A stretch of DNA of 64,000 nt, from NCBI GenBank assembly GCA_964397485.1, contig CAYNHT010000002.1:158061-222060 (forward strand). The letters are read 5' to 3'. Shown piece after piece: positions 28,414-57,027 of this stretch (its first letter is position 1; each line of letters opens with the position of its first letter). The translations under genes were made by a program, and so were the position numbers. This DNA is from an uncultured Muribaculaceae bacterium. GTDB taxonomy: Bacteria > Bacillota_I > Bacilli_A > RF39 > UBA660. Under the pieces are notes generated by a model, which worked only from the letters and a program-made list of their open reading frames with translations, had not been told where the DNA came from and ran no database searches.

Positions 28414-28908
28414 ATGACAGTGATTGCATCGTATGTAACGATTTTTTTAATTAAATTTATAGGTGGAGGCCTTGCTAATTATAGATTAATCATGATGAAA
28501 GAAGGTAATAGAATAGGAGTTTCTGTACTTACTATTTTTACGAGTCTATCTTGGATTTTAGCAATGGGGTTAGTAGTTGATAGTATAAACGAAGACATCT
28601 TTGTGGTAATTCCTTTTTTATTAGCTGTTGTTGGTGGTAATTATTTTGGTATGTATATAAACAATAAAATAAAAATAGGTCACGTATTAACGACTGTTAT
28701 AATTAACAATGATGAACTTGATTTAATAAAAAAATTGAAAGAGTTAAATTTTGATATTAAGGTCTTCAAAGCAACTGGGAAGGATAATGAAAAAAAAGTA
28801 GTTTTAATTAAAACTAGAACAAGTGAACATAAAACGTTAATCCAAACAATGAAAGATCTTAATGCTAATAAATTTATAATAAACGAAAAAATAGAGGAGG
28901 TATTCTAA
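28414..28908 (+). CDS. UPF0316-like membrane protein (DUF5698+DUF2179 architecture), paralog 1
   Basis: Three N-terminal hydrophobic helices plus a ~70-aa soluble C-terminal domain. This is the most divergent of the three tandem copies. Confidence 0.65.
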   Translation: MTVIASYVTIFLIKFIGGGLANYRLIMMKEGNRIGVSVLTIFTSLSWILAMGLVVDSINEDIFVVIPFLLAVVGGNYFGMYINNKIKIGHVLTTVIINNDELDLIKKLKELNFDIKVFKATGKDNEKKVVLIKTRTSEHKTLIQTMKDLNANKFIINEKIEEVF

Positions 28909-29408
28909 TGGATATATATTTATATTTATTTATATTTTCTCTGAAAATTTTAGAGGTAGGAATTTATTCGATTAGAATGGTACTTCTTACCTCTGGAGAA
29001 AAATATAAATCTTCATTATTCAGTTTTTTTGAAGTTGTTGTATGGGCTTTTGGAACTGGTATGGTAGCTAAATTGATTTTTGAAGATCTATTTATATTAT
29101 TTCCATATTTGTTAGGTGGATTAATAGGTGCTTTTTTAGGAATGACAATACAAGAGTTTATATCTAAAAGAGATACAATTGTAATTACTTTTATTAATAT
29201 AGACAACTTCAATGAAATAACAAGTTCTCTTAGAAAAAATAAATATGGTTTGACTATTTTAGAATGTGAAGAAGGAGAAAAAATGTTGCTTGTAGCGACT
29301 AAGAAAAATCGAATTTCTAATCTAAGGAAAATCATAAAGAGAATTGATAAAGACTCTACAATTATAACAAATGCAGCTGGGGATACAGTTGGAGGTTATA
29401 TATACTAG
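28908..29408 (+). CDS. UPF0316-like membrane protein, paralog 2
   Basis: Same architecture; the C-terminus ...GDTVGGYIY resembles B. subtilis YebE-type UPF0316 (from memory). The start overlaps the upstream stop (TAATG). Confidence 0.7.
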   Translation: MDIYLYLFIFSLKILEVGIYSIRMVLLTSGEKYKSSLFSFFEVVVWAFGTGMVAKLIFEDLFILFPYLLGGLIGAFLGMTIQEFISKRDTIVITFINIDNFNEITSSLRKNKYGLTILECEEGEKMLLVATKKNRISNLRKIIKRIDKDSTIITNAAGDTVGGYIY

Positions 29409-29422
29409 GAAGGTGATAATAA

Positions 29423-29926
29423 ATGATTTATTTTTTAATCTTTTTTCAGAAAATAATTGAAAATGCATTAAGTTCTTTTAGAGCAATTGTTTATACTGCT
29501 GGTCATAAGCATATAGGCGCCCTTCTTATAGCTATTAATACTGTTTTTTGGTTGTATATAGTTACAATCATTATTCATGATCTAACTGACGATCCAATTA
29601 AAGTTTTAATTTACGCATTAGGACAATTTTTTGGAGTCTATATAGGTATGGTTATTGAAAAAAGAATGGCAATTGGGAAATCATTACTGTATGTAATATT
29701 AGGAAAAGAAAACGAAGAGAACGTTACTCAAGAGTTAAGGGAAAAGGGGTATGGAGTTACCTGCATTGAAGCAAAAGGTTATGATGATAATGTAAAGAGT
29801 TTGCTTCTTATAGTTTGTAAAAGAAAAAATAAAGATACTATTCGAGATATAATAAAAAAATTCGAAAGTGAAGTGGTCATAATGAGTAAAAATCCTTCTA
29901 ATTTTACTGGAGGATATGTGAATTAG
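29423..29926 (+). CDS. UPF0316-like membrane protein, paralog 3
   Basis: Same architecture (QKIIENALSSFRAIVYTAG..., C-terminus NFTGGYVN). Confidence 0.7.
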   Translation: MIYFLIFFQKIIENALSSFRAIVYTAGHKHIGALLIAINTVFWLYIVTIIIHDLTDDPIKVLIYALGQFFGVYIGMVIEKRMAIGKSLLYVILGKENEENVTQELREKGYGVTCIEAKGYDDNVKSLLLIVCKRKNKDTIRDIIKKFESEVVIMSKNPSNFTGGYVN

Positions 29927-30600: not shown

Positions 30601-32775
30601 ATGAAAAAAATCACTACAATTATTCCTATTATAACTATATTAGTTGCAATTGTATTATCGATATTTTTCTTAGACTTTAATCAATCAAAGAGATATTTAC
30701 AGTTTAATTCATATAAAAAGGAATTTATAGCAATTAATTATAATGAAGATAGAACGCTTGACAGTCTCGTGATTGATAAGATTTTACAACTTGCAGAAGA
30801 TAATGGGGTAATAATCCAGAAAATGAATTTTTCTCATAATCAACCGGATGTTAGAAATATATATATATCATTTGAGACAACTGAAGAATTATATAAATTT
30901 ATCGGTGAAAATCTTCGGCTAAAGAGACTTAATGATTATACAAATAAAAATGATGGTTTTATATCAACTTATCAGCATAATGATAAAAATCAAATTGCAA
31001 TAATTCCTGATTTAATGGAGAATAATTATTACAATTATTATACATTTGATAAACTACTATCTGATGGTGATAATCTATATGGGGAATATATTGTTTATTA
31101 CAAAGGAAATAATGATTTTGCCAAGTTTTCGAGTGACGTTAGCGAATTGTTGGGGCAAGATATTAGTTCCAATTCACACTTCAATGACCTCACAAAATAT
31201 ACAATTATAGCACTGTTAATTAGTGTTTCTATTATGTTACTATTTTATTTTATTTTTCAAATATATGATACTTATTATAAATCTCAAAAAATAGGCTGTA
31301 TGAAATTACTAGGTTATAGTGAGTCTAAAATTACCAGTTTGTTGATAAAAAAAAGAATAAAAATATATTTTTTATTCTCATTGTTCACATTATTGATTTT
31401 ATTAATTTTAATTAAAAATATAACCTTTTCAAATCTTATATTTCTATTTAATGTCAACTTTATATTAATATTATTAACTATTATAATAAATTATGTATGT
31501 GTAAAAATAATATTTGGTGGTTATAATGTTTCAAATATATTAAAAAAACAAAACATAGCTTTAAAAATAAGTAAAACTAGTTTAAAATTAAAGGTTGTAA
31601 CTACAGTATTATTCATAATAACCTTATGTATATCTTTTCAACAACTGTCACCTATCTATTCTGAGCTAAAAGTTTATAGGGATGCGAAAGAATTGTTACA
31701 ATATGGTGTGATAGCTACCTTCAATGCTGATGCTAAGGAAATATATGATTATGAAAAACATTCTGAATTATATAAATTGATTGCAAGGAATCCTGAACTA
31801 AATACATTTTATTCTAGTTTTGATAATTATGGTGTTATGAATGAGGAGGAACAAAGAAATAGTAATTTACTTGAGGAACAAGGAACCTATTTTAGATATG
31901 GATCAATTGATAAAAACTACTTAAAAAAGGAAAGTATAGTTGTGTATGATGTAAATAATCATCTGGTTGATATAGATAAAATAAATAGCACATTCTTTTT
32001 ATTTCCTAAAAGCAAATATGGAAAAATAGAAAAATTTGAAGAATTTTATAAAAAACGTAGTGCTGATGATTATATAAAATATAATATTGAAAATGATTTT
32101 GTAGCTTATATTTATGATGATCAAACTATAAATTCATATAGATTAGATTTAAAAACCAAATATGTGAGTAGCCCTATTTTAAGGGTTATTGACGAAGCCG
32201 TTAGACTATCATATATAGAAACACCACTTGGTATAAATACATTTGGAACATCGCTTGGAACAAGCTTAAAAATAGAAATTAAGAATAACAAAAAAGAAAC
32301 ATTCGAAATTTTAGAAAAAGATATAGAAAAAGCGGGTTTGAAAAATCTGATTGGATTAGATAATTTTATATCTTTTTCAGATTATTTTGAGAGCGAAATA
32401 AGACTTTCAAGAATAGTTTCTTTTGTAGCTCTAACATTAATCTCAATTATTTTCGGTGTTTACTTAATAATCTCCATGCAAATAATCTCTCTCTATATAA
32501 AAAGTGATAAGCAAAGGGTAAATGTTAAATATTTATTAGGTTATGGAAAGAAAAAAATATTTTCTATTATTGTAAATAAAAATGCAATGTATAATGTAAT
32601 TGCATTTATCATAGCTATCGTTATACTTGTTCTGACTGAACAGTTAAATATTTTATTTTATTTGATATCGATATCTGCTTTTGCTGTTATTGATTTGATT
32701 GTTTTGTTTACTATAATTAGAACATATGATTTTTCGAAAATGTATCTTCAACTAAAAGGAGGGAATTATGATTGA
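30601..32775 (+). CDS. Bacteriocin-associated 7TM / FtsX-like integral membrane protein (putative immunity-export component)
   Basis: 724 aa: an N-terminal TM helix, a large extracytoplasmic loop, a TM cluster, a second large loop and a C-terminal TM cluster. Size and topology match the family found next to lactococcin-972 genes (TIGR01654, from memory). Confidence 0.65.
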   Translation: MKKITTIIPIITILVAIVLSIFFLDFNQSKRYLQFNSYKKEFIAINYNEDRTLDSLVIDKILQLAEDNGVIIQKMNFSHNQPDVRNIYISFETTEELYKFIGENLRLKRLNDYTNKNDGFISTYQHNDKNQIAIIPDLMENNYYNYYTFDKLLSDGDNLYGEYIVYYKGNNDFAKFSSDVSELLGQDISSNSHFNDLTKYTIIALLISVSIMLLFYFIFQIYDTYYKSQKIGCMKLLGYSESKITSLLIKKRIKIYFLFSLFTLLILLILIKNITFSNLIFLFNVNFILILLTIIINYVCVKIIFGGYNVSNILKKQNIALKISKTSLKLKVVTTVLFIITLCISFQQLSPIYSELKVYRDAKELLQYGVIATFNADAKEIYDYEKHSELYKLIARNPELNTFYSSFDNYGVMNEEEQRNSNLLEEQGTYFRYGSIDKNYLKKESIVVYDVNNHLVDIDKINSTFFLFPKSKYGKIEKFEEFYKKRSADDYIKYNIENDFVAYIYDDQTINSYRLDLKTKYVSSPILRVIDEAVRLSYIETPLGINTFGTSLGTSLKIEIKNNKKETFEILEKDIEKAGLKNLIGLDNFISFSDYFESEIRLSRIVSFVALTLISIIFGVYLIISMQIISLYIKSDKQRVNVKYLLGYGKKKIFSIIVNKNAMYNVIAFIIAIVILVLTEQLNILFYLISISAFAVIDLIVLFTIIRTYDFSKMYLQLKGGNYD

Positions 32776-33397
32776 AATCAATGGATTGAACAAATCTTAT
32801 GGTGAGAAGGAAATCTTTAAAAAATTTAATTACAAAATAAATGATGCAACACTGTTGGCTATTGTTGGTAAGAGTGGAAGTGGTAAATCAACTTTGTTAA
32901 ATATTCTAGGATTATTAGATCGTGATTATCACGGTGATATATTATATAATGGCGAGAATATCGCAAAAAGAAAAGAGTCTAAAGTGACAGAGTTCATTAG
33001 ACAAAATATAAATTATTTATTTCAAAATTATGCACTAGTAGATAATGAAACGGTCGAATATAATCTCCTTCTTGCACTAGAATACGAAAAAATGTCCAAG
33101 AAAGAAAAAATTTCTAAAGTAAGTAATGCATTAAAGTTAGTAGATTTAAATGAATTTAATAATAAAAAAATTTACACGTTAAGTGGTGGTGAGCAACAGA
33201 GGGTAGCTTTAGCAAGGATTATACTAAAAAAGGGGAATATTATATTGGCTGATGAACCAACTGGGAATTTGGATTATAACAATAGCTTGAAAGTAATGAA
33301 TATACTAAAGAATTTACAACAGCAAGGAAAAACTATTGTAATTGTAACACATAATGAGAATCTTGCTTTGGAATGTGATGAAATAATTCGTTTGTAG
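32768..33397 (+). CDS. ABC transporter ATP-binding protein (MacB/LolD-like, bacteriocin-export group)
   Basis: GKSGSGKST, LSGGEQQR and IILADEPT motifs; overlaps the upstream gene by 8 nt. Confidence 0.9.
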   Translation: MIEINGLNKSYGEKEIFKKFNYKINDATLLAIVGKSGSGKSTLLNILGLLDRDYHGDILYNGENIAKRKESKVTEFIRQNINYLFQNYALVDNETVEYNLLLALEYEKMSKKEKISKVSNALKLVDLNEFNNKKIYTLSGGEQQRVALARIILKKGNIILADEPTGNLDYNNSLKVMNILKNLQQQGKTIVIVTHNENLALECDEIIRL

Positions 33398-38913: not shown

Positions 38914-41634
38914 ATGAAGTTATTTGTAAAATTAAATGTATCTATATTAATAATTCTTATATCTTTTTTTGCGATTTTTGATGTTAATAGTATTAATAAT
39001 CATACTAATACTCAATTAATTGATTTATCTTCAAATGATCCAGTAAAAGTATATCAAGCAGGAAAAGGTAAGTCTAAATATAAAAGTAATGAATTAATAA
39101 TAAATTTCAATGTTGAAGATTATAGTTATCTTGAAGACAAATATAATATAAAAGTTAATGATAAACTTGATAGTGATAATTATTTGATTGAATTTAATCC
39201 TAATGAATATACAATGGAAGAAATATTAATATTAGCTAATAAAGAACCTGGTATTGAATATGCAGAACCTAACTATGTTATGAAATTAGCATATTCACCA
39301 GTTTCTGAACAGTTTTATGATTATCTTTGGGCATTTAAAAACCCAACATACGGTATTAATATTACACCAGTTTGGGATGAAACTTTTGGACGTGATGAAG
39401 TTGTAGTAGCGATTGCTGATTCTGGTATTGATTATACCCACCCTGATTTGATATCTAATATATGGATTAATACTGAGGAAATATTAGGTAATGGTATAGA
39501 TGATGACGGTAATGGATATATAGACGATTATTACGGTTGGAATTTTTATCAAAATAATAATAATGTAATGGATTACAATGGGCATGGTACACATGTAGGG
39601 GGAATAATTGCTGCCGAAATAAATGGGGAAGGAATCGTAGGAACTGCACCTAATGTAAAAATTATGGCCTTAAAAGTTAGTGACATAGAAGGAAATGTAT
39701 ATTTAGATAAAGTTGTTTCTTCAATAAATTATGCGGTCAATAAAGGAGTTAAGATATTTAATTTTTCATTTGGAGGACCTGTCCAATATCAAGCTTTTGG
39801 CAATGCAATTGCTAACACGGATGCTTTGTTTTTATGTGCTGCAGGTAATGATGGTACTAATAACGATATTTTACCTTTCTATCCAGCAAGTTATAACTAT
39901 AATAATATTATTTCAGTTGCTGCTCATAGAGAAACAGGTGTTTTAGCGGACTTTTCTAATTATGGAATCAATTCTGTAGATGTATCTGCTCCTGGCCATA
40001 ATATTTTAAGCACCTATCCGCTATCACTCACACCAGATGGATATTATCCGTATATTTACTTTAATGGGACCTCGATGGCGGCTCCTTATGTATCTGGTTT
40101 AGCTGCTTTACTTTGGAGTCAAAACTCTAATTACAGTGTATCTGAAATACGGAATTATATTTTAAGTAATGTTAAAACGTATGGTTCATTTACAACAAAG
40201 GTATCTACAGGAGGTATTATAGATGCTTCAAAATCATATAGCGCGCTTATAGATTCACTATACGATGGTGGAAGTGGTACGATTGAAGACCCATATCTTA
40301 TCTCCAATGTGGAGCAATTTAATAATATAAGAAATAATTTAGCTGCCTCTTATAGATTAACAAGTAATTTAGATTTTACTTATGATACGACTAATGTTAA
40401 TGGTTTATTTTATAATAATGGTAAAGGTTGGTTACCAATTGGTAATAACGAAAGTAGCAGTAGTGGTTATACTGGTAATGCTTTTAATGGAAATTTTGAT
40501 GGAAATGGATATGTAATAAAGGGTTTGAATATTAATCGTCCGAGTGAATATTATTTAGGATTATTTGGTAATGTTGTTGGAATTGATACAGAGCATTCCA
40601 CGATCAAAAATCTTATCTTAGAAAACGGAAATATTAAAGGTCAAGGATATATAGGTGGATTGATTGGCTATGCACAATATGTTGATATATCAAATGTTGG
40701 GACAAATTTAAATATTATTGCATCAGACATGTATATAGGTGGGGTTGTTGGTTATATAGAGGGCAATATTAATAAATCATATAATACTGCTTTAATCGAA
40801 GCTTCTAGTAAAGCTGGTGGTATAGCCGGATCAATAATGGGTGATATTTATGATACCTTTAATTTAGGGATAATGAATAGGTATAACGATATTAATGTTA
40901 CTGATAGTGGCGGAATCGTTGGTGTATTATCTGGTAGTATGTCAAATTCATATAATTTGGGTATGTTAAGAGACAATAATTTTAAATTTTTTGTTGGACT
41001 TAATAATGGAGGAATTATTGATAATGTTTACTATTATAATCCATATAATTTAAATGAGGATATATATGGTGTACAATTGACGGAATCTGAAATATATGAA
41101 AGTGAAAGTTATATAAACTTTGATTTTGATAATGTATGGCAAATAAACATTAATAGTAAACTGCCAACATTAAGAGGAATGCCTTTTCATCAATTAACTG
41201 ATTATAATGTGGCTGATAAGTTAACTTTGAATATAAAAAAGGACCAGTCTTATAATTTAAATATCACAAATAATCCTAGCTTTAATTTAAGAAAAAATTA
41301 TGTTTACAGTAGTGATGATGAAAATATTGTTACCGTTGATAAAAATGGAAAGATTACACCTATAAAGATAGGGAATGCTGTCATAGAAATATATTCGATT
41401 GAACTGGGCGTTTCTAAATATATAGATGTTGAAGTAAAGATAGTTAAGGGTGATGTAAATAATGACGGTAATGTAACTATTACAGATTTGGTAAAGTTAA
41501 GTCGTCATCTAGCTGGATTAGAAACTATTCAAAGCAACTATTTAGAAAACGCTGATATTAATAATGATGGTAATGTAACTATTACAGATTTAGTAAAACT
41601 AAGTCGTCATCTAGCTGGATTGGAGGGAATATAA
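38914..41634 (+). CDS. Secreted subtilisin-like S8 peptidase with GLUG-type module, Big_2 domain and C-terminal type I dockerin
   Basis: Contains a signal peptide and an I9-like propeptide. Catalytic triad context AIADSGIDYTHPDL / HGTHVGGIIAA / GTSMAAPYVSG. A ~308-aa GLUG-type module spans 40267-41190, followed by an Ig-like Big_2 domain. Two Ca-binding dockerin segments DVNNDGNVTITD and DINNDGNVTITD lie at 41449-41631. Confidence 0.9.
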   Translation: MKLFVKLNVSILIILISFFAIFDVNSINNHTNTQLIDLSSNDPVKVYQAGKGKSKYKSNELIINFNVEDYSYLEDKYNIKVNDKLDSDNYLIEFNPNEYTMEEILILANKEPGIEYAEPNYVMKLAYSPVSEQFYDYLWAFKNPTYGINITPVWDETFGRDEVVVAIADSGIDYTHPDLISNIWINTEEILGNGIDDDGNGYIDDYYGWNFYQNNNNVMDYNGHGTHVGGIIAAEINGEGIVGTAPNVKIMALKVSDIEGNVYLDKVVSSINYAVNKGVKIFNFSFGGPVQYQAFGNAIANTDALFLCAAGNDGTNNDILPFYPASYNYNNIISVAAHRETGVLADFSNYGINSVDVSAPGHNILSTYPLSLTPDGYYPYIYFNGTSMAAPYVSGLAALLWSQNSNYSVSEIRNYILSNVKTYGSFTTKVSTGGIIDASKSYSALIDSLYDGGSGTIEDPYLISNVEQFNNIRNNLAASYRLTSNLDFTYDTTNVNGLFYNNGKGWLPIGNNESSSSGYTGNAFNGNFDGNGYVIKGLNINRPSEYYLGLFGNVVGIDTEHSTIKNLILENGNIKGQGYIGGLIGYAQYVDISNVGTNLNIIASDMYIGGVVGYIEGNINKSYNTALIEASSKAGGIAGSIMGDIYDTFNLGIMNRYNDINVTDSGGIVGVLSGSMSNSYNLGMLRDNNFKFFVGLNNGGIIDNVYYYNPYNLNEDIYGVQLTESEIYESESYINFDFDNVWQININSKLPTLRGMPFHQLTDYNVADKLTLNIKKDQSYNLNITNNPSFNLRKNYVYSSDDENIVTVDKNGKITPIKIGNAVIEIYSIELGVSKYIDVEVKIVKGDVNNDGNVTITDLVKLSRHLAGLETIQSNYLENADINNDGNVTITDLVKLSRHLAGLEGI

Positions 41635-41635
41635 A

Positions 41636-43240
41636 ATGAAAAAGAAATTGATTTATCTGGTACTATTAATGGGATTATTTATTGTGCTTCCTGTTAAGGC
41701 TGCCAATTTTTCAACATCAATAAGTGGGGTTTCTAATATAGCCTTAAACCAACAATTTACTGTTACTTTTAATGTTGTTAATGGAACAAATATTATGGGG
41801 GTTGATGGATTATTAAATTATGATTCTTCCAAACTTACATTAGTGTCATCATCTGGATTAAATGGTTTTACTGTTGTAACGGGAAGTAGGTTAGTTGCAT
41901 ATAAGACAACGGGAAAATCTGGAACTTTTGGGTTTGCTACTTTTACTTTTAAAGCAAAAAGTACTTTTACTGCAGGGCAAAGTACAACAATCTCTTTATC
42001 TGATGTTAAAGGATCTAATGGTAGTGATATAAGTGGTAGTAGTAGTGTAAAAACGATTAAAGTTGTCTCTAGTAATAATAATCTATCATCTTTAAAAATT
42101 GATGGAACAACTATTAGTGGTTTTAGTCCTACCAAGACTTCTTATAGTATAACTGTACCTAACAATAAAAATTCTGTTGCAATTAGTGCTGTAGCTGAAA
42201 GTTCTAGCAGTAACATTATTGGAACTGGCAATAAAAATTTAAATGTTTATGCAAATACTTATAACATTGTAGTTACAGCGGAAAATGGTTCTAAAAAAAC
42301 ATATACTATAACTATATATCGCAAAGATGCGGATGGTTTAACTTCCCCAAAGTCTACAGATAGTACATTGAAAAATTTAAAAGTAACTAATTATGATATT
42401 AAATTTAATTCATCAACAACAAAGTATGACTTGAAAGTAGATAATAATATAACAAATTTAAAGGTTGAAGCATTGTCAAATAGTGATAAAGCTAAGGTTA
42501 CTATAGATAATCCTAGTGAATTAAAAGTGGGTATTAATATTATTAAAATTACTGTACAGGCTGAGGATAATTCGGTAACTGAATATGTGATAAATGTTAC
42601 AAGAAGTGGTGAGGGCCCTACAACGACTTTAGATAAACTGATTGATATAGTAAAAACAACAACGGCAAATACTATAAATGTTGATATAAAAGATAATAAT
42701 ACTGAAATAAGTTCTGATATGTTAAATGAAATAAAAAATAGTCAGAAGCAAGTTATTATAAATCATTATAATTCTAGTGATAACATAACTTACATTTGGA
42801 AAATAAATGGTACTAAGTTGATTAATGACAAAACTATAAATACTAATATAAATTTCACTTCTCCAAATGTAGAGGCTATTAACGAATTGACTAATTATTC
42901 TAATTATCTTATATTAAATTTTGATCATTCAGGTGATTTGCCAGAAAACACAACTGTTACAATATATGTGGGCGATAAATATAAAGATGGTGATGTATTA
43001 AAATTATATTATTATTCATCAGAAGACAATAAGATAGAATTAAATCGTGATAATTTAAAGGTGGAAAATGGTTATGTAGAATTCGAACTAGAACATTGTT
43101 CTGAGTACTTATTGTCAATGGCTAATTTTACGAGAGCTAATATTGAGAGTAATACAACTATATTACTTTTGCAGATAATTCTAGTAATTGAGACAATTTT
43201 TATAGCATACTTACTAATAAAGAAAAAAATAACGGGTTAA
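41636..43240 (+). CDS. Membrane-anchored cohesin-domain protein with two cadherin-like beta-sandwich domains
   Basis: Starts 1 nt after the protease stop and has a signal peptide. The ~130-aa N-terminal domain has a cohesin-like pattern (FTVTFNVVNGTNIMGVDGLLNYDSSKLTLVS...GTFGFATFTFKAKS). Two NLSSLKIDG.../LKNLKVTN... cadherin-like modules follow, then a C-terminal TM helix plus KKKITG. Confidence 0.7.
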   Translation: MKKKLIYLVLLMGLFIVLPVKAANFSTSISGVSNIALNQQFTVTFNVVNGTNIMGVDGLLNYDSSKLTLVSSSGLNGFTVVTGSRLVAYKTTGKSGTFGFATFTFKAKSTFTAGQSTTISLSDVKGSNGSDISGSSSVKTIKVVSSNNNLSSLKIDGTTISGFSPTKTSYSITVPNNKNSVAISAVAESSSSNIIGTGNKNLNVYANTYNIVVTAENGSKKTYTITIYRKDADGLTSPKSTDSTLKNLKVTNYDIKFNSSTTKYDLKVDNNITNLKVEALSNSDKAKVTIDNPSELKVGINIIKITVQAEDNSVTEYVINVTRSGEGPTTTLDKLIDIVKTTTANTINVDIKDNNTEISSDMLNEIKNSQKQVIINHYNSSDNITYIWKINGTKLINDKTINTNINFTSPNVEAINELTNYSNYLILNFDHSGDLPENTTVTIYVGDKYKDGDVLKLYYYSSEDNKIELNRDNLKVENGYVEFELEHCSEYLLSMANFTRANIESNTTILLLQIILVIETIFIAYLLIKKKITG

Positions 43241-47166: not shown

Positions 47167-48063
47167 ATGGAGTATACAAGTAGTGATGTAGCTATAACAA
47201 AATGTTTATTTAAAAAAGAAGTTAATGCCGTTTTAGAGGGTTTGGATTTAATAAAAGCCTCATCTTTAATTGAACAAAAAGATACAGTTGTTATTGTTCC
47301 AAATTGGGTAAATAAGGAAAAACCAGATCCAGAATGTGGAGTAATTGTTGGTCCTGATACTCTAGAAGCTATTATTAAATGGGTAAAGAAACTAAATCCT
47401 AAAAGAATAGTAGTGGCTAGTGGTTCTGGAGGCGGCGATACTAAGGAAGTGATGAAAAAAGTAGGTTATGACAAGATAATAAAAAAAACGGGTGTAGAAT
47501 TTATCGACTTAAATAAAGGACCATATGTTGATATAAAATTAGATCACGACTACCCTAGTAAAATAAAAATAAATAAAATTTATAAAGAAATGACTAAATT
47601 AATATCTTTTACTCAATTAAAAGAACATGAAGAGGCAACAATGTCATCTTCTATTAAAAATATCACAATGTCTTTTCCCTCGACTGAAGAGCACGGAACC
47701 CCAAAAAAAGATGGAGGAATTCATAATGACTTGCATGGATTCATTAGAGCAATGGCACAAAAAATTAAAATAGACATATCAATTGTAAGTCTAAATCCGG
47801 TTATGGTCGCAACTGGTCCAACAAAAGGAATTAGTAGACATACTGGATTAGTAATAGTAGGAAATAATCCTATTAGTGTTGATACGGTATGCGCTAGAAT
47901 GTTAGGTTTTAAGACACAAGGTGTTAGATATTTATATGAACTTGAGAAAAGAGGGTTAAAGGAAACGGATATTAATAACATAAACATTTTAGGAATAGAT
48001 CTTATCAAAGCCGAGAAGATATTTACTGATAAAGTTTTTGGCAAAAAAACTTCGGTCGATTAA
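47167..48063 (+). CDS. DUF362-domain protein
   Basis: ATG 47167 follows SD aagggagg. The track start at 47095 lies inside the upstream terminator. The sequence (VVIVPNWVNKEKPDPECGVIVGPDTLEAIIKWV...VASGSGGGDT) resembles DUF362 as I recall it. Confidence 0.6.
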   Translation: MEYTSSDVAITKCLFKKEVNAVLEGLDLIKASSLIEQKDTVVIVPNWVNKEKPDPECGVIVGPDTLEAIIKWVKKLNPKRIVVASGSGGGDTKEVMKKVGYDKIIKKTGVEFIDLNKGPYVDIKLDHDYPSKIKINKIYKEMTKLISFTQLKEHEEATMSSSIKNITMSFPSTEEHGTPKKDGGIHNDLHGFIRAMAQKIKIDISIVSLNPVMVATGPTKGISRHTGLVIVGNNPISVDTVCARMLGFKTQGVRYLYELEKRGLKETDINNINILGIDLIKAEKIFTDKVFGKKTSVD

Positions 48064-48070
48064 TTATATG

Positions 48071-48093
48071 AATCTAGGTGACTAGATTTTTTT
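48071..48093 (+). terminator. Intrinsic terminator
   Basis: Stem aatctag/ctagatt, loop gtga, then T7. Confidence 0.8.
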
Positions 48094-48225
48094 GATTTGT
48101 AACCAAACTGTATAAGCGGGTGGTATTTATGAGTGAAAACATGTTATAATTAGTAAAATCTAAAATATGAGTACTTACGTGCTATATACTGGTTTCAAGA
48201 TGATTGACAGTAAGGGGATGAGTTT

Positions 48226-51200
48226 ATGAATAAAAAGGGATTTACTTTAATAGAACTATTAGCGGTAATAGTTATTATTGCAATTATTTTGAGTGTTACT
48301 GTCCCATTAGTAATGGGGATTATAGATGATGTAAGAGATGCCGCAAACGAGAGACAAAAAGAATTAATAGTAAAAGCAGCGGAAAAATATGTTTTTTTCA
48401 ATAGTGATGTTTTAGCTGATATATCTGAAATAGACTCATTTACTTATATAACAATTGGTGATTTAATAGATGCTAATTTAATTGGTAGTAATTTAAGAAA
48501 TATAAAAAAGAATACTATTTTAAATAAAGATCAAAAGATAAAAATTATAAATAGAGGAAATGGTTATTATAGTTATTATTTTGTTGATGAAGATGGAGAA
48601 GAAGAGGAAATTATTATTATTGATAATGGATCTAATGGCGTAATTGATCCTGATTATACCTATAGTTATGGTAGTGGAACATCTGAAGACCCATATCAAA
48701 TAAGAGGTTTAACAGATTTAAACCATGTGCGCTTAGAAGAAAGTGCTAATTATGTTTTAATGACTAATATTAATGCTGAATATACAAGAGATTGGAATGA
48801 TGGTGCAGGTTGGGTTCCGTTAGGAAATTCTGTTAGTAATTATAATGGGATTATAGATGGAAATGGATATACAATAAGTAATTTATATATAAATCGACCT
48901 ACAGATGACTATCAAGGATTTATTGGTTATCTTGGGATTGATTCAAGTATTTCTAATATAAATTTAATTAACGTTGATATAACAGGGAAAAATTATGTAG
49001 GGGCGGTTTCTGGATATATAAACAGGTCAAACATTGATAGCGTTACAGTTGCTGGTAATGTATCGGGCTACAATAACATTGGAATGGTTTCAGGGTATTC
49101 AATGCTATCGGATGTATCAAATGTGGTAACGTTAGGTTCAGTAACAGGAAATAGTAATGTAGGAGCAATAAATGGTTATCAAAATAGAATGAATTTATCA
49201 AATAGTTATTCATTTGCCGATGTAACAGGAAGTAGTAATGTAGGGGGACTTGTTGGATATTTATATGGTTCCTCATCAAGTGCAACTGGAAATATAACAA
49301 ATTCTTATTTTTCAGGAACTGTATCTGGTAGTAGTTATGTAGAACCTATAGTAGGAAGGTTTAATAGTAATGTTAACATATCTAGTACATATTGGGATAC
49401 TGAAGTAACAGGAATATCTAGCGCTACTCATGGCGAAGGTTTATTAACTTTTAGGATGAAAATGGAAAGCAGTTTTATAGATTGGGACTTTAACAATGTA
49501 TGGGATATAATAGAAAATGAAACATTCCCTTATTTAAGGCATCAGGGAGGACCTTTGGACGAATATCCCGAGACTATCGATAATGGTGTAATGTTAGGTG
49601 ATGGTACAGCAGAAAATCCTTATCAAATAAGAAATTTAGCAAGCCTAGATCAAATAAGAAATGTCTCTAATGCGCACTATGTTCTTAAAAATAATATAGA
49701 TGCAAGTGATACAATAAATTGGAATGATGGTACAGGATGGCTACCAATTGGAGATAATTCCGTCAAGTTTAGTGGAGTAATAGATGGAAATGGGTATAGC
49801 ATAAATAATTTATATATAAATAGACCAACTACTGACTATCAGGGATTAGTTGGATATTTGGATACAGGTGGAGAAGTAAAAAATTTAATATTAAACGATG
49901 TTAATATCACTGCCAGAAATTATGCCGGAGGATTAGTTGGATATTTAAATGGATCATCATTGAGTAATATAGGTGTAAGCGGAACTGTCACTACTTATAA
50001 TTACGGTGGAATGATAACTGGATATGCCACTTTATCACAGATAAATAATGCCTTTAGTGTTGGTGATTTGACTGGGAATACTAACGTTGGAGGAATAAGT
50101 GGATACCAAAATCGAACTGATTTATTTAACAGTTATTCAGTAGCTAATGTAACTGGAAGTGGAACTGTTGGAGGTTTAACAGGATATTTGTTAGGTGCAA
50201 ATTCTAGTAGTCGAGCATTTATTACAAATAGTTATTATGCTGGAAAATTAGTTGGTGGTAGTTATACCGATATGATCGCAGGTAGAACGAATAGTTATAT
50301 AACAGTCACTGATACATATTGGGATGCTGAACAGGTTGGTAGAACTAGTTTGGGTGAAGGTCAAGCAATCTATACAATTGAGATGAAAAATAAAGATAGA
50401 TTCGTAAATTGGGATTTTGAAAATATTTGGGGTATCAATGAAGGTCTAACATATCCGTATTTGAAACATCAAAATGGTCCACTAACAAGCTATCCTGAAA
50501 CAACACAGGGAGGAATAACTTTAGGTACGGGGACTATTGATGATCCATATCAAGTATCTACATTGGTTGGGTTAGGTCAAATGGCTAATATAGTTAATGC
50601 GCACTATATCCTAATATCGAATATAAATGCAGGTGATACGACAAATTGGAATAATGGAACAGGATGGATACCTGTTGGTAATAATTCTGTAAATTTTATT
50701 GGATCAATTGATGGAAATGGTTATACAATAAGTAATTTATATATAAATAGACCAACTACCGATTATCAAGGGTTAGTTGGTTATCTTGGAACAAATGCAA
50801 GTGTTTCTAATTTACGATTATTAAATATTAACATTACAGGAAGAAATTATACATCTGGTTTATCAGGATATTCAAATGAAGCAGAGATAACAAATGTAGG
50901 AATAGAAGGAAATGTAAATGGTAATAATTACGTTGGGATGATTACAGGTTATTCGATGTCAACTAATATTAATCAGTCTTATAGTAATGGTGAATTGATA
51001 GGCACTTCATATCTAGGTGGAATAAGTGGATATCAAAACAGAATGAACTTAATAAATAGTTACTCACTTATTGATATAAGTGGAACATCATATGTTGGCG
51101 GATTAGTGGGATATTTAGTTGGTGGTAATTCTAGTCTTATAGGGCGAATAGAAAATTCATATTATGCAGGTAATATAACTGGAGGAAGTTATACAGATCC

Positions 51201-52347
51201 AATAGCTGGAAGAACTAATAGTTATATTAATATTACAAATACATATTGGGATGCTGAAAGTGCAAATATACCATCTTCTAGTAATGGTGAAGGTATGTTT
51301 ATTTTCCAAATGAAGAATAAAAATAGTTATGAAAATTGGGATTTTTCTAACATATGGAGTATTGGAGAAAATCAAACATATCCATATTTGAAATTTCAGG
51401 AGAATCCATTTGCTACTTATCCTGAAACAACAGCAAATAGAATAATTATGGGTAATGGTACTGTTGAAAACCCGTATCAAGTACCAACTCTTATTGGATT
51501 AAATCAAATAAGATATTTAATTAATTCTAATTATATATTGACAGCAAATATAAACGCTAATGATACATCTAGTTGGAATAATGGCGAAGGATGGATACCT
51601 ATTGGAGATAATAGTGTACAATTTAAAGGAACAATCGATGGAAATGGGTATGTTATTAATAATTTACATATAAATCGATCAACCTCTAGTTATCAGGGTC
51701 TATTTGGGTATCTAGGAGATGGAAGTAGTATCATTAATTTACACTTAAGTAATTTGAGTATTAATGGCAGAGATTACATCGGTGGGATTGCTGGATATGC
51801 AAACTTATCATCTGTTAGTAATGTATCTGTTCAAGGTGATATCAACGGTAGAAATTATCTTGGAATGATCGTAGGTTATTCTATGTACAGTAATATTGAT
51901 AAATCATATAGTAATGGCTTTGTAACTGGTGCTTCATATCTAGGAGGAATAAGTGGATATCAAAATAGATTTTATATGACAAATAGTTATTCTAGTTCTA
52001 ATATAAGTGGAAGCACTTATATTGGAGGACTAACTGGATATCTTTATAGTTCAACAAGTGCGGCTCGAGCCGAAATTATTAATTGCTACTTTGCAGGAAC
52101 AATAACCGGTGGAAGCTATACTGCTCCTATTGGCGGAAGGGTTAATAACCATACTGTCATCAGTACCTATTGGGATAAAGACATAAACGGAATTCAAAGT
52201 TCTACTAGTGGTGAAGGAAAAACTACGACTGAGATGAAAAATTTAAATACTTTTATAGATTGGGATTTTACCAATATATGGAATATTCAATCAGGCACAT
52301 CTTATCCTTTTTTAAGAGGTAATCAACAAATACCAGTGCCACAATAA
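48226..52347 (+). CDS. Giant prepilin-type N-terminal cleavage/methylation domain protein with four GLUG-type repeat modules
   Basis: MNKKG|FTLIELLAVIVIIAIILSVTVPLV (class III signal peptide, Glu+5), then a ~125-aa pilin-like head and an acidic linker (DEDGEEEE). Four homologous 309-aa modules follow, each with xDPYQI...GW(L/I/V)P(I/L/V)G...IDGNGY.I.NLYINRPT.DYQG and multiple xxVGGLxGY (GLUG) turns. Confidence 0.9.
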   Translation: MNKKGFTLIELLAVIVIIAIILSVTVPLVMGIIDDVRDAANERQKELIVKAAEKYVFFNSDVLADISEIDSFTYITIGDLIDANLIGSNLRNIKKNTILNKDQKIKIINRGNGYYSYYFVDEDGEEEEIIIIDNGSNGVIDPDYTYSYGSGTSEDPYQIRGLTDLNHVRLEESANYVLMTNINAEYTRDWNDGAGWVPLGNSVSNYNGIIDGNGYTISNLYINRPTDDYQGFIGYLGIDSSISNINLINVDITGKNYVGAVSGYINRSNIDSVTVAGNVSGYNNIGMVSGYSMLSDVSNVVTLGSVTGNSNVGAINGYQNRMNLSNSYSFADVTGSSNVGGLVGYLYGSSSSATGNITNSYFSGTVSGSSYVEPIVGRFNSNVNISSTYWDTEVTGISSATHGEGLLTFRMKMESSFIDWDFNNVWDIIENETFPYLRHQGGPLDEYPETIDNGVMLGDGTAENPYQIRNLASLDQIRNVSNAHYVLKNNIDASDTINWNDGTGWLPIGDNSVKFSGVIDGNGYSINNLYINRPTTDYQGLVGYLDTGGEVKNLILNDVNITARNYAGGLVGYLNGSSLSNIGVSGTVTTYNYGGMITGYATLSQINNAFSVGDLTGNTNVGGISGYQNRTDLFNSYSVANVTGSGTVGGLTGYLLGANSSSRAFITNSYYAGKLVGGSYTDMIAGRTNSYITVTDTYWDAEQVGRTSLGEGQAIYTIEMKNKDRFVNWDFENIWGINEGLTYPYLKHQNGPLTSYPETTQGGITLGTGTIDDPYQVSTLVGLGQMANIVNAHYILISNINAGDTTNWNNGTGWIPVGNNSVNFIGSIDGNGYTISNLYINRPTTDYQGLVGYLGTNASVSNLRLLNINITGRNYTSGLSGYSNEAEITNVGIEGNVNGNNYVGMITGYSMSTNINQSYSNGELIGTSYLGGISGYQNRMNLINSYSLIDISGTSYVGGLVGYLVGGNSSLIGRIENSYYAGNITGGSYTDPIAGRTNSYINITNTYWDAESANIPSSSNGEGMFIFQMKNKNSYENWDFSNIWSIGENQTYPYLKFQENPFATYPETTANRIIMGNGTVENPYQVPTLIGLNQIRYLINSNYILTANINANDTSSWNNGEGWIPIGDNSVQFKGTIDGNGYVINNLHINRSTSSYQGLFGYLGDGSSIINLHLSNLSINGRDYIGGIAGYANLSSVSNVSVQGDINGRNYLGMIVGYSMYSNIDKSYSNGFVTGASYLGGISGYQNRFYMTNSYSSSNISGSTYIGGLTGYLYSSTSAARAEIINCYFAGTITGGSYTAPIGGRVNNHTVISTYWDKDINGIQSSTSGEGKTTTEMKNLNTFIDWDFTNIWNIQSGTSYPFLRGNQQIPVPQ
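48670..52344 (+). repeat. Four tandem coding repeats with an exact 927-nt (309-codon) period
   Basis: The conserved Pro codon of the DPYQ motif falls at 48691, 49618, 50545 and 51472, each exactly 927 nt apart. Units start at about 48670, 49597, 50524 and 51451, and the last is 11 codons short. The copies have diverged; they are not near-identical DNA. Confidence 0.9.
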
Positions 52348-52391
52348 AACAAGCAATATACTATAGTAGCATTAGAGAGGAGAAATTTAAT

Positions 52392-52841
52392 TTGAAAAAA
52401 ATAATTTATATGTGTGTCATTACCTTAGTATTAATATCACTTATTGGGTGTGAGAAAAAGCAGGAAGAACGGGTAAAATGTTCAGATTATATTCTTGATT
52501 ATATGGCTGAAAAAAAATGGATTTTAAGTAATGAGGAGAATGCTGAATTTACTAACAATGATAAACCTAATATAATGTGGTCAATAGTTCATGATTACTT
52601 ATTTATAGATAAAGGACCGGATTTTTATGATCTAGATATTAGAAATAACAGTATCTATAAAGATAACGATTTCAAAAATAATGTTTATGATACATATAAA
52701 AATGAGGTTGAATTTGATAAGCTAAAATCTGAATTAATTTCGATTCATGAACATCTAGAGTACGTAGGTTGCCCTGTTTATGGACAATCACCTGACATAT
52801 TATTAAACTATAAGGAGTTGGAGCAAGAGAAAAAGAATTGA
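52392..52841 (+). CDS. Lipoprotein, unknown function
   Basis: TTG start after SD agagaggag; lipobox LISLIG|C. Confidence 0.6.
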   Translation: MKKIIYMCVITLVLISLIGCEKKQEERVKCSDYILDYMAEKKWILSNEENAEFTNNDKPNIMWSIVHDYLFIDKGPDFYDLDIRNNSIYKDNDFKNNVYDTYKNEVEFDKLKSELISIHEHLEYVGCPVYGQSPDILLNYKELEQEKKN

Positions 52842-54960: not shown

Positions 54961-57027
54961 CTATATTTTCTTTTTTACTAAACTAAGTTGTTTAATAGCT
55001 TGTTTTGATAAAGGAATGCTTCTGTTGTTAAGATATTCTTGCCATTCTTTTTTTTGTTGTTCAAGAGTATTAAAATTGTTTATAAAATCCTCTTCAATAC
55101 ATGTGTTATATGTTAATGATTTTAAATCGATGTCAATATTGAAATAGTTTAATATTTTTATAATGAAACTAGGATTATAAAATCTATCTCCATGATTACT
55201 CGATAAAGAAAGTATATGTATATTGTTATATAATAAAAGCAAATCTTCTTTAGATAAATTATCGCTTTTTAAAATTAGTTCAAATACTTTTTCTATTGCA
55301 ATTTTATTTTTATCTACAATTGATTTTTCTTTTATTTGTCGTTCTTTATATTGATCAAAGCATTTATACAATTCTGATAATTGATCACCATATAGTTGTT
55401 TTAATTTCGCCAGAAAAGGTTTGTTAAAAGGACTATTAAGAGGATTAGCACAAGCTTTTTCTGAAATACAAAGATCAATGAAATCAACAAAATCATACTC
55501 AATGAATTGATTATTTATATCCTTGTGATAATTTTCCATGTTGAATAATTCTTCCATAATTGAATTTACGAAATAATCAGTACCATCTTCTTCTACCACC
55601 TTTTCTTGTTGTACAAAATTTTTAACGAATTCTAAAGCCTTTTCCTTGGTGTCAATATTAAAACTCTTTTGATTTGTAAATACAATTGGTCTTCCATCAA
55701 TATGAAGAATAAGAATCCCTTTTCCTTTAATAATTGGACTCAAAGAGTTATATGTTCCTAAAAATTGCTTTTCAATTATGAATTTGTCTTCATAGGGCAA
55801 TAAAATTTTAAGTGGATTAATTAAATTGTCATAATTAAGTTTTATTTTTGAATTTATGACTTCATAATATCCTTTATCAAGCTCCAAAAAATTTGGGTTA
55901 TTTACATAATCATATAAATTTTTATATTTTGAATAAATATCCTTTAAATTTTTTTCTTCATCTATTGTAAAAGATAATCTATTGTGTAGTTCACATAATC
56001 TAAGTATTCTGCTAACTTCTAGTGAGCAAGTATCATGATTTTGTAATTTTTCGCTATTTTTATATCCTTTAAGAATTTTTTTGATTTCAACTTGCTCTTT
56101 ATTTTTTTCTTCAAGTCTTCCAAGTTCTTTTATGTTATTTACAACAGGACTTGCCATACCAAAACAGTTATAAAATCCTTTTAATTCAATTATTTGTAAA
56201 TTTTTTAGTCTTGTTAAAAAAAGCATATTTGTTACTTTCCCATCAATAGATATAACTTCTAGATTAGGAGCAAAATCAGGTAAATAATTATAGTTATCGT
56301 TTAAATCTTCAGTGTCTATATTAGCAATTTCTAACACTTGTAAATTAGGCGCATATGATATCAAAAATAATTTCTTATAATTTATATTACAATTTATGAG
56401 TGCTAATTTTTCTGATTGAATATTAACTTGCTTTTCTAACGAAATATCACAACTGTTAAAAGTGTAGTCATTATTAGTGTTTTTGAAAATCCCAAAATCT
56501 TGTATATTCATATTAGAGAAAATTATATCTTGGTTTTGTAATAAAGTGAAATTTATATGTGGGCCAATAACACAATTGTTAAATGTAATTCCTTTGTTAT
56601 TTTTGAAGTAATTGTTTAAGTTGATAATAAGTTTATTATCTATGACTATATTGTTAAAGTATAGTTTGCTATTATTGTAGATGAGATCTAAGATATTTCT
56701 TTTCCTATCTTCTTCTACATATATTAAATCATTAGAATTACTTTCTATTGTTTCAATAAATTTCTTAAAATCAGTACTTCCTAGTTCTATGTTTTTACTT
56801 AGTGAATGAAAATATATACTACATGAATTAATAGTGAAATTATAATATAAATGAGTATGGAAATCATCGCCAAATATCCAAGCATCTCCATAATCGCGGC
56901 CACTTGCATATTCAGGCATGTTTATTTTATAAAATTCTCCGCTCCTATTATAAACAACAATATTTTTATTTGTGAATTGTCTTATAATTTTATTGTAAAT
57001 ATTTACACGATATAGTTCTAGATCCAT
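54961..57027 (-). CDS. Orphan 688-aa protein with a leucine-rich-repeat-like central region
   Basis: Long ORF with SD aggggga. The central segment shows LRR-like periodicity (NLQVLEIANIDTEDL...PNLEVISIDGKVTNMLFLTRLKNLQIIELKG). No catalytic motif or family was recognised. Confidence 0.6.
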   Translation of the reverse strand: MDLELYRVNIYNKIIRQFTNKNIVVYNRSGEFYKINMPEYASGRDYGDAWIFGDDFHTHLYYNFTINSCSIYFHSLSKNIELGSTDFKKFIETIESNSNDLIYVEEDRKRNILDLIYNNSKLYFNNIVIDNKLIINLNNYFKNNKGITFNNCVIGPHINFTLLQNQDIIFSNMNIQDFGIFKNTNNDYTFNSCDISLEKQVNIQSEKLALINCNINYKKLFLISYAPNLQVLEIANIDTEDLNDNYNYLPDFAPNLEVISIDGKVTNMLFLTRLKNLQIIELKGFYNCFGMASPVVNNIKELGRLEEKNKEQVEIKKILKGYKNSEKLQNHDTCSLEVSRILRLCELHNRLSFTIDEEKNLKDIYSKYKNLYDYVNNPNFLELDKGYYEVINSKIKLNYDNLINPLKILLPYEDKFIIEKQFLGTYNSLSPIIKGKGILILHIDGRPIVFTNQKSFNIDTKEKALEFVKNFVQQEKVVEEDGTDYFVNSIMEELFNMENYHKDINNQFIEYDFVDFIDLCISEKACANPLNSPFNKPFLAKLKQLYGDQLSELYKCFDQYKERQIKEKSIVDKNKIAIEKVFELILKSDNLSKEDLLLLYNNIHILSLSSNHGDRFYNPSFIIKILNYFNIDIDLKSLTYNTCIEEDFINNFNTLEQQKKEWQEYLNNRSIPLSKQAIKQLSLVKKKI

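Follow-up and report, generated by a model that had tools for sequence, protein, structure and literature searches.

Does a prepilin leader in front of a very large surface protein place that protein in a type IV filament, or is the leader used only to hold it at the membrane? The question is raised by a gene at 48226-52347 on the plus strand of a 64,000-nucleotide (nt) stretch of contig CAYNHT010000002.1 (GCA_964397485.1), which was analysed as a whole and is called the window below. The gene consists of one open reading frame (ORF) with an ATG start and 31% GC, and its 1373-amino acid (aa) product, referred to here as the GLUG pilin, is made up of a prepilin leader, a pilin module of about 120 aa (the head), an acidic linker and four tandem beta-helix modules of about 309 aa. 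A preliminary description of the window had proposed this protein as a giant modular pilin candidate, and the proposal held in that the head proved, by homology, to be a full pilin module and the cargo a string of beta-helical GLUG modules; the pilin-like head, the acidic linker and the four homologous modules were confirmed by Pfam, head homology and module alignment. We regard it as somewhat better than an even chance that the protein is shown on a type IV filament as a beta-helix adhesin. Its parts are the following (AF2, AlphaFold2 model; pLDDT, predicted local distance difference test).

48226-48240, plus strand: prepilin leader peptide MNKKG, predicted to be cut after Gly5, with Phe6 as the N-methylated first residue (N_methyl, TIGR02532)
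48241-48309, plus strand: hydrophobic alpha1N segment FTLIELLAVIVIIAIILSVTVPL, with Glu+5 (codon 48253-48255) and Pro+22 (sequence)
48226-48585, plus strand: complete pilin module or head, residues 1-120, with predicted alpha1 helix 8-58, alpha-beta loop and strands 72-76, 104-111 and 114-120 (AF2, homology)
48586-48645, plus strand: linker, residues 121-140, with acidic DEDGEEEE followed by IIIIDNGSNGVI (modelled beta strand 126-132) (sequence, AF2)
48646-49572, plus strand: GLUG-type beta-helix module 1, residues 141-449, 309 aa (alignment, AF2 pLDDT 90-98, Foldseek)
49573-50499, plus strand: GLUG-type beta-helix module 2, residues 450-758, 309 aa (alignment, AF2, Foldseek)
50500-51426, plus strand: GLUG-type beta-helix module 3, residues 759-1067, 309 aa (gapless alignment to modules 1 and 2)
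51427-52347, plus strand: GLUG-type beta-helix module 4, residues 1068-1373, 306 aa, with two small indels, plus the stop codon (alignment)

The N-terminal region is by homology a complete pilin module

The precursor begins with MNKKG followed by FTLIELLAVIVII, that is, with a short basic leader, Gly-1, Phe+1 and Glu+5; read further, leader and helix run as MNKKG plus FTLIELLAVIVIIAIILSVTVP, which includes Pro+22 and is a class III signal peptide (PF07963, TIGR02532, IPR012902). The N_methyl domain of Pfam matched residues 2-24 (28.4 bits, cutoff 21.2) and the NCBIfam model TIGR02532 (IV_pilin_GFxxxE) scored 29.2 versus a cutoff of 16.3, in agreement with the class III signal peptide with Glu+5 that had been noted in the preliminary description and is visible in the sequence. 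We infer from the motif that the precursor is cleaved after Gly5 and that Phe6 is methylated. The equivalog hidden Markov models (HMMs) of individual pilin types stayed below their cutoffs: ComGC (NF040999) reached 30.9 versus 75 and GspG (TIGR01710) 25.5 versus 88.85, the match in both cases being confined to the N-terminal helix, and the GspH, ComGE and ComGF models were also far under their cutoffs.

A word-indexed search with the first 162 residues matched 943 proteins, the closest of which, P0001 (46% identity) and P0002 (40%), covered about 76% of the query, from residue 1 to about 125, and contained N_methyl as their only domain. When residues 1-135 were compared by phmmer with 1.84 billion cluster representatives, 11,155 matches were obtained at E≤1e-3 and 103 at E≤1e-10. 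The best 143 of these, the protein itself excluded, fell into 59 proteins shorter than 200 aa, mostly stand-alone pilins of about 110-140 aa, and 84 proteins of 200-948 aa, and in most members of both size groups the match spanned residues 1 to about 120 of the head. In an alignment of the head with the stand-alone pilins (A4), the latter stop where the acidic run DEDGEEEE (residues 121-128, nt 48586-48609) starts in the GLUG pilin; the cargo begins and the head alignment ends at the same point. Phe+1, Thr+2 and Glu+5 are invariant in A4, while Gly-1, Leu+3 and Pro+22 (P27) are found in at least 90% of the sequences. Among the 84 large members of the head family the F, T, L and E of the motif are all invariant and Gly-1 is nearly so.

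The structure prediction proposed in the preliminary description was carried out with AF2 and gave a head built of an alpha1 helix and a small beta-sheet, and beta-helices for the modules. With A4 as input, the head was modelled with a pLDDT of 91.4 and a predicted template modelling score (pTM) of 0.76; the model has a helix at 8-58 and strands at 72-76, 104-111, 114-120 and 126-132, a topology that fits a type IV pilin. The best match of the head among the protein sequences of the PDB was the major pilin PilE1 of S. sanguinis (8pfb, E 7.5e-6), covering residues 6-69 only. Judged by its homology, the head is a complete pilin module, related from end to end to stand-alone pilins of about 120 aa.

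The cargo consists of four beta-helix modules

The preliminary description had spoken of exact 927-nt modules, which is true of their register: the Pro codons of the [DN]PYQ anchor motif (DPYQ in two modules, NPYQ in the other two) lie at 48691, 49618, 50545 and 51472, so the spacing is exactly 927 nt three times. It does not hold for the sequences, whose ungapped identity between modules is 40-57% for aa and 53-67% for nt, nor for module 4, since only modules 1-3 (309 aa each) align without gaps and module 4 has 306 aa and two small indels. The register was measured by the protein motif, as Tandem Repeats Finder, run on 48000-52600, reported nothing relevant because the array is too diverged. 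Even the most distant pair, modules 1 and 4, showed 48% identity when aligned with gaps (E 2e-94), and the modules are 48-57% identical among themselves and at most 40% identical to any other module fetched. Pairwise comparison of modules 1-3 gave synonymous divergence (dS) of 1.0-1.4, nonsynonymous divergence (dN) of 0.33-0.43 and dN/dS of about 0.3. Because the modules are closest to each other and because of these rates, we consider that the array is an old amplification within the gene, kept under purifying selection; the earlier statement that the copies are well diverged and the duplication ancient is upheld by the nt identities and dS values. That three copies with about 50% identity differ by no indel suggests a constraint on their length, and in homologous proteins the module period varies from about 260 to 420 aa.

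Residues 1-775 were modelled by AF2 with a mean pLDDT of 87 and with values of 90-98 in both modules included; confidence was low only in the head (with the alignment used for this model) and in the linkers at 131-141, where it fell below 50, 447-453 and 759-767. This pattern suggests that the modules are beads on a string, joined by flexible linkers. In Pfam searches, PF07581 (Glug) matched five stretches of the protein and PF05342 (Peptidase_M26_N) four (E 5.5e-17). Foldseek placed the modules closest to BACOVA_03286 (3n6z; E 1e-7, target template modelling (TM) score 0.67) and also matched the beta-helix of the IgA1 proteases of S. pneumoniae (6xja/6xjb) and G. haemolysans (7uvk), the E values ranging from 1e-7 for 3n6z to 7e-4. 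A phmmer search of one module against PDB sequences found no match at E≤1, and the homology to IgA1 proteases was visible only via Pfam and the fold search.

The head family carries large cargos in the host lineage

The SecY relatives of the host, with 70-89% identity, have coarse labels (metagenome-assembled genomes of a Mollicutes, Bacilli or Firmicutes bacterium). The GC content is 25-35% across the 64-kb window, with a positive GC skew over most of it, and the flanks contain ParB, S6-SSB-S18 and the S10 operon upstream and CotZ, Agr and SecA downstream. The host is an uncultured, spore-forming, low-GC Firmicute, and the window is probably close to the origin of replication.

When metagenomes were scanned with the head alignment, 80 loci were obtained, with a total length of 760 kb and a median GC of 27%. 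Complete leader-bearing ORFs number 99 in these loci; 44 of them encode 200 aa or more, 15 reach at least 500 aa and five at least 1000 aa, and related metagenome contigs include prepilin-leader ORFs with lengths of about 1340 and 1590 aa. The cargos in the 80 loci include BspA-type leucine-rich repeats, Ig-like, Flg_new, DUF285 and glycine-rich domains, while the 84 large representatives carry Laminin_G_3 (19 proteins), Bact_surface_Ig-like (six), dockerin (two), and also sialidase-N, PA14 and GLUG domains. The cargo of the head family is thus composed of typical adhesin domains, and the idea, already put forward in the preliminary description, that this lineage deploys large cargo on pilin leaders was borne out by both sets.

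Two side observations concern members of this family. Some small proteins, the two dockerin proteins among the 84 and P0119 (213 aa), join a prepilin leader and pilin head to a type I dockerin, which would allow cohesin partners to be brought onto a pilin, or a pilin onto a scaffoldin; nothing specific was found in the literature on the combination of pilin and dockerin. Furthermore, a gene for a membrane protein of the Wzy_C family lies 3′ of a small orphan pilin gene at two loci, directly in L154 (10001-11737) and past a GTPase gene in L070 (10001-14329). The Wzy_C family includes the pilin O-oligosaccharyltransferases (PilO/TfpO, PglL), and this hints that the pilins of the two loci may be glycosylated.

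The window contains a second gene of modular pilin type:

13402-15375, plus strand: prepilin leader, head of about 140 aa belonging to another family, middle region and GH18 domain (Pfam N_methyl and Glyco_hydro_18)

This GH18 gene is flanked by the rpoA-rplQ end of a ribosomal operon, an SDR gene and a hexapeptide transferase gene on one side and by ecfA/ecfA'/ecfT on the other. The catalytic motif of its product, DGIDINLE (DxxDxNxE, 14821-14844), has Asn in place of the third Asp, and the domain may be weakly active or lectin-like. The preliminary description had found the first 25 residues of the GLUG pilin nearly identical to those of the GH18 protein. Eighteen of the 25 indeed match and the first 15 residues from KKG are identical; nevertheless, the link is weaker than was implied, as the shared stretch is the generic alpha1N motif of pilins and the heads, dissimilar past alpha1, belong to different families.

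GLUG arrays occur on other anchors and on other pilin heads

A search with the full-length protein gave 1,825 matches at E≤1e-5 among 8,000 candidates scored, in which GLUG arrays were combined with the tail of the type IX secretion system (T9SS; PF18962, Por_Secre_tail), dockerin, SLH, LPXTG, PGF-CTERM or PASTA. A scan of genome contigs with the whole protein identified 62 GLUG loci in bacteria and archaea at 22-40% identity, none of them a close orthologue. The host itself also pairs a GLUG module with a dockerin anchor, since the window encodes, at 38914-41634 on the plus strand, a 906-aa subtilase with a Fervidolysin-type prodomain, Peptidase_S8, Big_2, a dockerin and one GLUG-type module (residues 445-765); the next gene (41636-43240, plus strand) encodes two cadherin-like domains. 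A recent exchange of modules between the pilin and the subtilase was rejected, the subtilase module being just 32-34% identical.

Among the top 120 full-length matches, N_methyl and GLUG were found together only in P0144, an 1811-aa protein with five GLUG modules encoded on the 1.49-Mb contig OW818670.1 of GCA_942493215.1. Its overall identity to the GLUG pilin is 31% and the two heads match in alpha1 only, whereas the P0144 head is 34% identical to that of the GH18 protein over 144 aa (E 4e-21). Because the P0144 head belongs to the head family of the GH18 protein, GLUG arrays are joined to two different pilin heads. About 3 kb upstream of P0144 (L006, 4927-6819) a 630-aa protein with N_methyl and Bact_surface_Ig-like domains is encoded; GCA_942493215.1 likewise has several large fusions of this kind.

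Locus L086 (JAEEGL011026697.1, 5044-18767) contains five tandem prepilin-leader genes, with products of 540, 1117, 1077, 1053 and 748 aa, between pgsA and spoIVFA/B-like genes. Four of the five proteins have about three diverged GLUG-like modules each, which were detected by our own module HMM and are missed by Pfam Glug at E≤0.001. As far as these sequences tell, the pilin-GLUG architecture recurs independently, in P0144 and in the L086 paralogues. A further candidate, matching from query residue 6 (L064), was discarded as a pilin-GLUG protein, being a lipoprotein-signal protein with GLUG, HINT and PG_binding domains. At another locus (L069, 7818-9749) a 643-aa protein with a faint Glug match and without pilin motif is encoded 5 kb from P0002, a head homologue of 234 aa.

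Filament display and its alternatives

How, then, would the GLUG pilin be used? The explanation we favour, with moderate confidence, is that it is a low-abundance modular pilin, processed by a prepilin peptidase, which presents its beta-helix cargo as an adhesin on a type IV filament. The precursor would be inserted into the membrane through Sec/SRP (SRP, signal recognition particle), a prepilin peptidase of the PilD/ComC type would cut after Gly5 and methylate Phe6, and the alpha1N helix would keep the mature protein in the membrane. The type IV machinery would then build it, at low abundance, into a filament made mainly of small pilins. Because of the cargo of ~1,240 aa, its position would most probably be at or near the tip, or else on the shaft, the linker letting the cargo swing outward. 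Joined by short flexible linkers, the four beta-helix beads might extend for perhaps 15-20 nm and bind, as a multivalent adhesin, a putative protein or glycan ligand in a gut-type habitat. In type IV filaments Glu5 makes an inter-subunit salt bridge, and the capping subunit of a tip complex is without it (PMC10191384); since the GLUG pilin has kept Glu+5, it is probably not the very last cap. Several features argue that the head serves polymerization and not just anchoring: the whole globular head is conserved with free-standing pilins, Glu+5, the salt-bridge residue, is invariant even in large fusions, and Pro+22, too, is conserved in the GLUG pilin and the large members of its head family.

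Several results weigh against display on a filament. The cargo of ~1,240 aa far exceeds that of any experimentally studied modular pilin and would have to cross the cell wall. The AF2 model of the head gave no significant match in a Foldseek search of the PDB, so the assignment of the pilin fold draws on sequence homology and topology; a long helix with a small sheet is suspected to be a poor Foldseek query, and most deposited pilin structures are suspected to be without alpha1N. Signatures of an assembly ATPase or a prepilin peptidase were absent from the six-frame translation of the window, as were T2SSE, T2SSF and Peptidase_A24 from the Pfam scans of its 39 other ORFs and from the gene tables of the 10-kb flanks on either side (the platform protein T2SSF was covered by Pfam only, in the scanned window ORFs and flank genes, and not by motif). 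The preliminary description had likewise listed no assembly genes for the 64-kb window. The GLUG pilin gene is an orphan, with assembly genes neither in the window nor in the flanks, and no small major pilin of its own head family was identified in the covered part of the same genome. Similarly, the motifs GPTGSGK(S/T) of T2SSE and GxGDxK of A24 were absent from the 80 head-family loci (760 kb), where a laxer Walker-A pattern matched only ABC, UvrA, PriA and VirB4-like proteins. Nor were ATPase or peptidase genes present in six small-pilin contexts (P0001, P0041, P0002, P0020, P0061 and P0102), in which the pilin genes are orphans amid housekeeping or sporulation genes. To our knowledge, a prepilin peptidase and an assembly machine are near-universal in Firmicutes and hence to be expected in the host.

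These results bear most on the main alternative, possible although less likely, namely that the pilin leader anchors the protein without polymerization: held by alpha1N in the cytoplasmic membrane, or in a very short stub, the protein would reach through the wall with its modules like any ordinary surface protein, and in this lineage such leaders might generally take the place of LPXTG, SLH or lipoprotein anchors. The genes of the head family are scattered among housekeeping genes, and none was found beside an assembly ATPase in the 80 loci, the six contexts, the window or its flanks. Many genomes encode arrays of leader-bearing proteins of very large size, as with the five in tandem at L086, and 15 of the 99 ORFs have at least 500 aa; so many are hard to place on filament tips. 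In addition, the pilin head fills the slot of the anchor that other GLUG arrays fill with a T9SS tail, dockerin, SLH, LPXTG or PGF-CTERM, and there is an archaeal precedent in the sugar-binding proteins with class III signal peptides of the bindosome (PMC3047682). A mere anchor, however, would need no conserved globular domain, yet the whole head of ~120 aa is conserved with stand-alone pilins, and Glu+5, a charged residue within a hydrophobic helix that is known for subunit docking, is invariant in 84 of 84 large members. The scattered gene positions lose weight as well, because accessory pilins are often unlinked to assembly genes, which is the usual situation in well-studied systems.

A broader proposal, which is speculative and in our estimation improbable, would make pilin heads the general carrier of the surface proteome in this lineage, a "pilin-displayed adhesome" replacing sortase and SLH anchoring. 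If this were true, dozens of adhesin, enzyme and dockerin cargos of up to about 1,800 aa, borne by two or more head families and encoded by dispersed orphans or tandem arrays without linkage to assembly genes, would be shown on short type IV filaments that span the wall or would themselves form such filaments, and the exact 309-aa period of the beads would reflect a spacing constraint of display.

Very little speaks for a pilin-tethered enzyme, whether an M26-type, IgA1-like protease or a beta-helix polysaccharide lyase or hydrolase. It could be read from the Peptidase_M26_N match, from Raynaud et al., who call IPR012902-IPR011493 a predicted M26 peptidase module (PMC8179133), and from weak Foldseek matches (E 0.016-1) to other proteins of beta-helix fold, namely tailspikes, PL6 lyases and epimerases. 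Those to lyases and tailspikes do not reach significance, their TM scores being 0.1-0.15. An M26 protease was ruled out, since no HExxH motif is present in the 1373 aa and Peptidase_M26_C gave no match at E≤0.1; the protein contains one Cys and neither an LPXTG motif nor a G5 region. The solved structure of the IgA1 protease shows the beta-helix (residues ~781-1070) as a compact, independently folding and non-catalytic unit that contacts the substrate Fab and gates the active site, the catalytic residues being located outside it in the middle and C-terminal domains (PMC7695701). The label "peptidase" is unwarranted for the GLUG/Peptidase_M26_N module, as the family name does not imply activity, and a binding role is the best-supported reading of the modules. 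Finally, an artefact, either a mis-assembly of repeats or a decaying gene, deserves hardly any credit: long, internally repeated genes are liable to mis-assembly in metagenomes, but these repeats (53-67% identical in DNA) are too diverged for collapse or mis-joining, 17 contigs from ENA, Logan, JGI and NCBI encode the identical 1373-aa product, the reading frame is uninterrupted for 4.1 kb with dN/dS of about 0.3, and the gene is preceded by a good ribosome-binding site and a promoter-like element.

Signals and genes around the GLUG pilin gene

The following candidate signals were found upstream of the gene.

48073-48093, plus strand: terminator-like hairpin TCTAG-GTGA-CTAGA followed by T7, 3′ of the upstream DUF362 gene (recognized by eye, putative)
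48142-48150, plus strand: extended −10 promoter-like element TGTTATAAT (a consensus match, putative in function)
48212-48218, plus strand: ribosome-binding site AAGGGGA, 7 nt 5′ of the ATG (sequence)

The hairpin was not reported by a consensus terminator scan, its stem being too AT-rich for the rule applied. Downstream, a 149-aa ORF (52392-52841, plus strand) starts 44 nt past the stop codon of the pilin gene and encodes a lipoprotein-type signal (LISLIG before the Cys) and no Pfam family; it was rejected as a conserved partner, as the gene that follows P0144 is not similar to it.

Other parts of the window contain several further ORFs of interest. Those at 54961-57027 (minus strand, 688 aa) and 30601-32775 (plus strand, 724 aa) had no Pfam match at E≤0.001, and the latter, which is directly followed by an ABC ATPase gene (32768-33397), may encode a permease. 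An Abi_2 (abortive-infection-like) gene at 22406-23338 (plus strand) lies among housekeeping genes, beside those of an HtrA-type protease and an amidase with six LysM domains. Three consecutive ORFs of 164-167 aa at 28414-29926 (plus strand), the first with a weak DUF5698 match, look like tandem paralogues of a small membrane protein.

Comparison with known systems

Modular pilins were defined by Raynaud et al. (2021), who listed more than 1,200 proteins in 264 architectures; IPR012902-IPR011493 (GLUG) is represented in their dataset by six proteins, and the largest example they cite has 860 aa (PMC8179133). With N_methyl, the linker of residues 121-140 and Glug/Peptidase_M26_N, the GLUG pilin is a modular pilin in this sense, and nothing specific on the combination of prepilin and GLUG was found in the literature beyond that study. 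The novelty implied in the preliminary description was therefore overstated, as the architecture had already been catalogued, and neither is the size a record, considering P0144 (1811 aa) and the leader ORF of ~1590 aa in related contigs. The GLUG pilin is a larger example, with a four-fold array, of an already described class, and not the largest.

Current concepts are thus not overturned, the class and the domain combination being already catalogued. If the GLUG pilin is presented on a filament, its cargo would be among the largest known to be borne by a pilin, and the principle of grafting a module onto a pilin would extend from single domains of ~200-300 aa to a multivalent array of ~1,240 aa. 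GLUG arrays, which are very widespread and have a function assigned only in IgA1 proteases, would gain a fourth or fifth mode of anchoring, which would support their being generic, anchor-independent binding modules. A poorly known low-GC lineage appears to invest heavily in surface proteins with prepilin leaders, and this bears on attachment to hosts, particles and cells in gut and rumen. What might repay more work is the abundance of very large pilin fusions, encoded at scattered positions and built on two or more head families.

The closest experimentally established counterparts are PilB and PilC of S. sanguinis, modular pilins that were modelled at the pilus tip (PMC8179133). PilB (vWA) and PilC (ConA-like lectin) have, like the GLUG pilin, a class III signal, a small pilin module, a short linker and a non-pilus domain, and the lectin cargo of PilC is paralleled by Laminin_G_3 in the head family of the GLUG pilin. 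The latter is known from its sequence alone, in contrast to PilB and PilC, and its cargo, four 309-aa modules with about 1,240 aa in all, exceeds theirs several-fold and also lies beyond the 860-aa extreme. With the M26 IgA1 proteases (6xja/6xjb, 7uvk) and BACOVA_03286 (3n6z) the modules share fold and family and a compact size of ~290-310 aa; compared with the proteases, the GLUG pilin has four tandem copies, no middle or C-terminal catalytic domains, and a pilin anchor instead of a cell-wall motif. Tandem GLUG surface proteins with other anchors contain the same module of ~300 aa in 3-8 copies at 25-40% identity. They have C-terminal or other sorting signals and a period of 260-420 aa, while the GLUG pilin has an N-terminal pilin and an exact 309-aa period for three modules.

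The archaeal bindosome proteins are not known to have the complete pilin module of bacterial type that is carried by the GLUG pilin. The sugar-binding proteins of the Sulfolobus bindosome nevertheless offer a precedent in which large non-pilin cargo shown at the cell surface has a pilin-type signal (PMC3047682); they belong to another domain of life, and the likeness is an analogy that implies no homology. The nearest relatives in architecture are P0144 and the L086 paralogues, which, like the GLUG pilin, have 3-5 GLUG-type modules behind a prepilin leader and pilin head and occur in low-GC, uncultured Firmicutes. P0144 differs in its variable module lengths and in its head, and because this head belongs to the family found in the GH18 protein, P0144 and the GLUG pilin probably arose by independent fusions or had their heads swapped.

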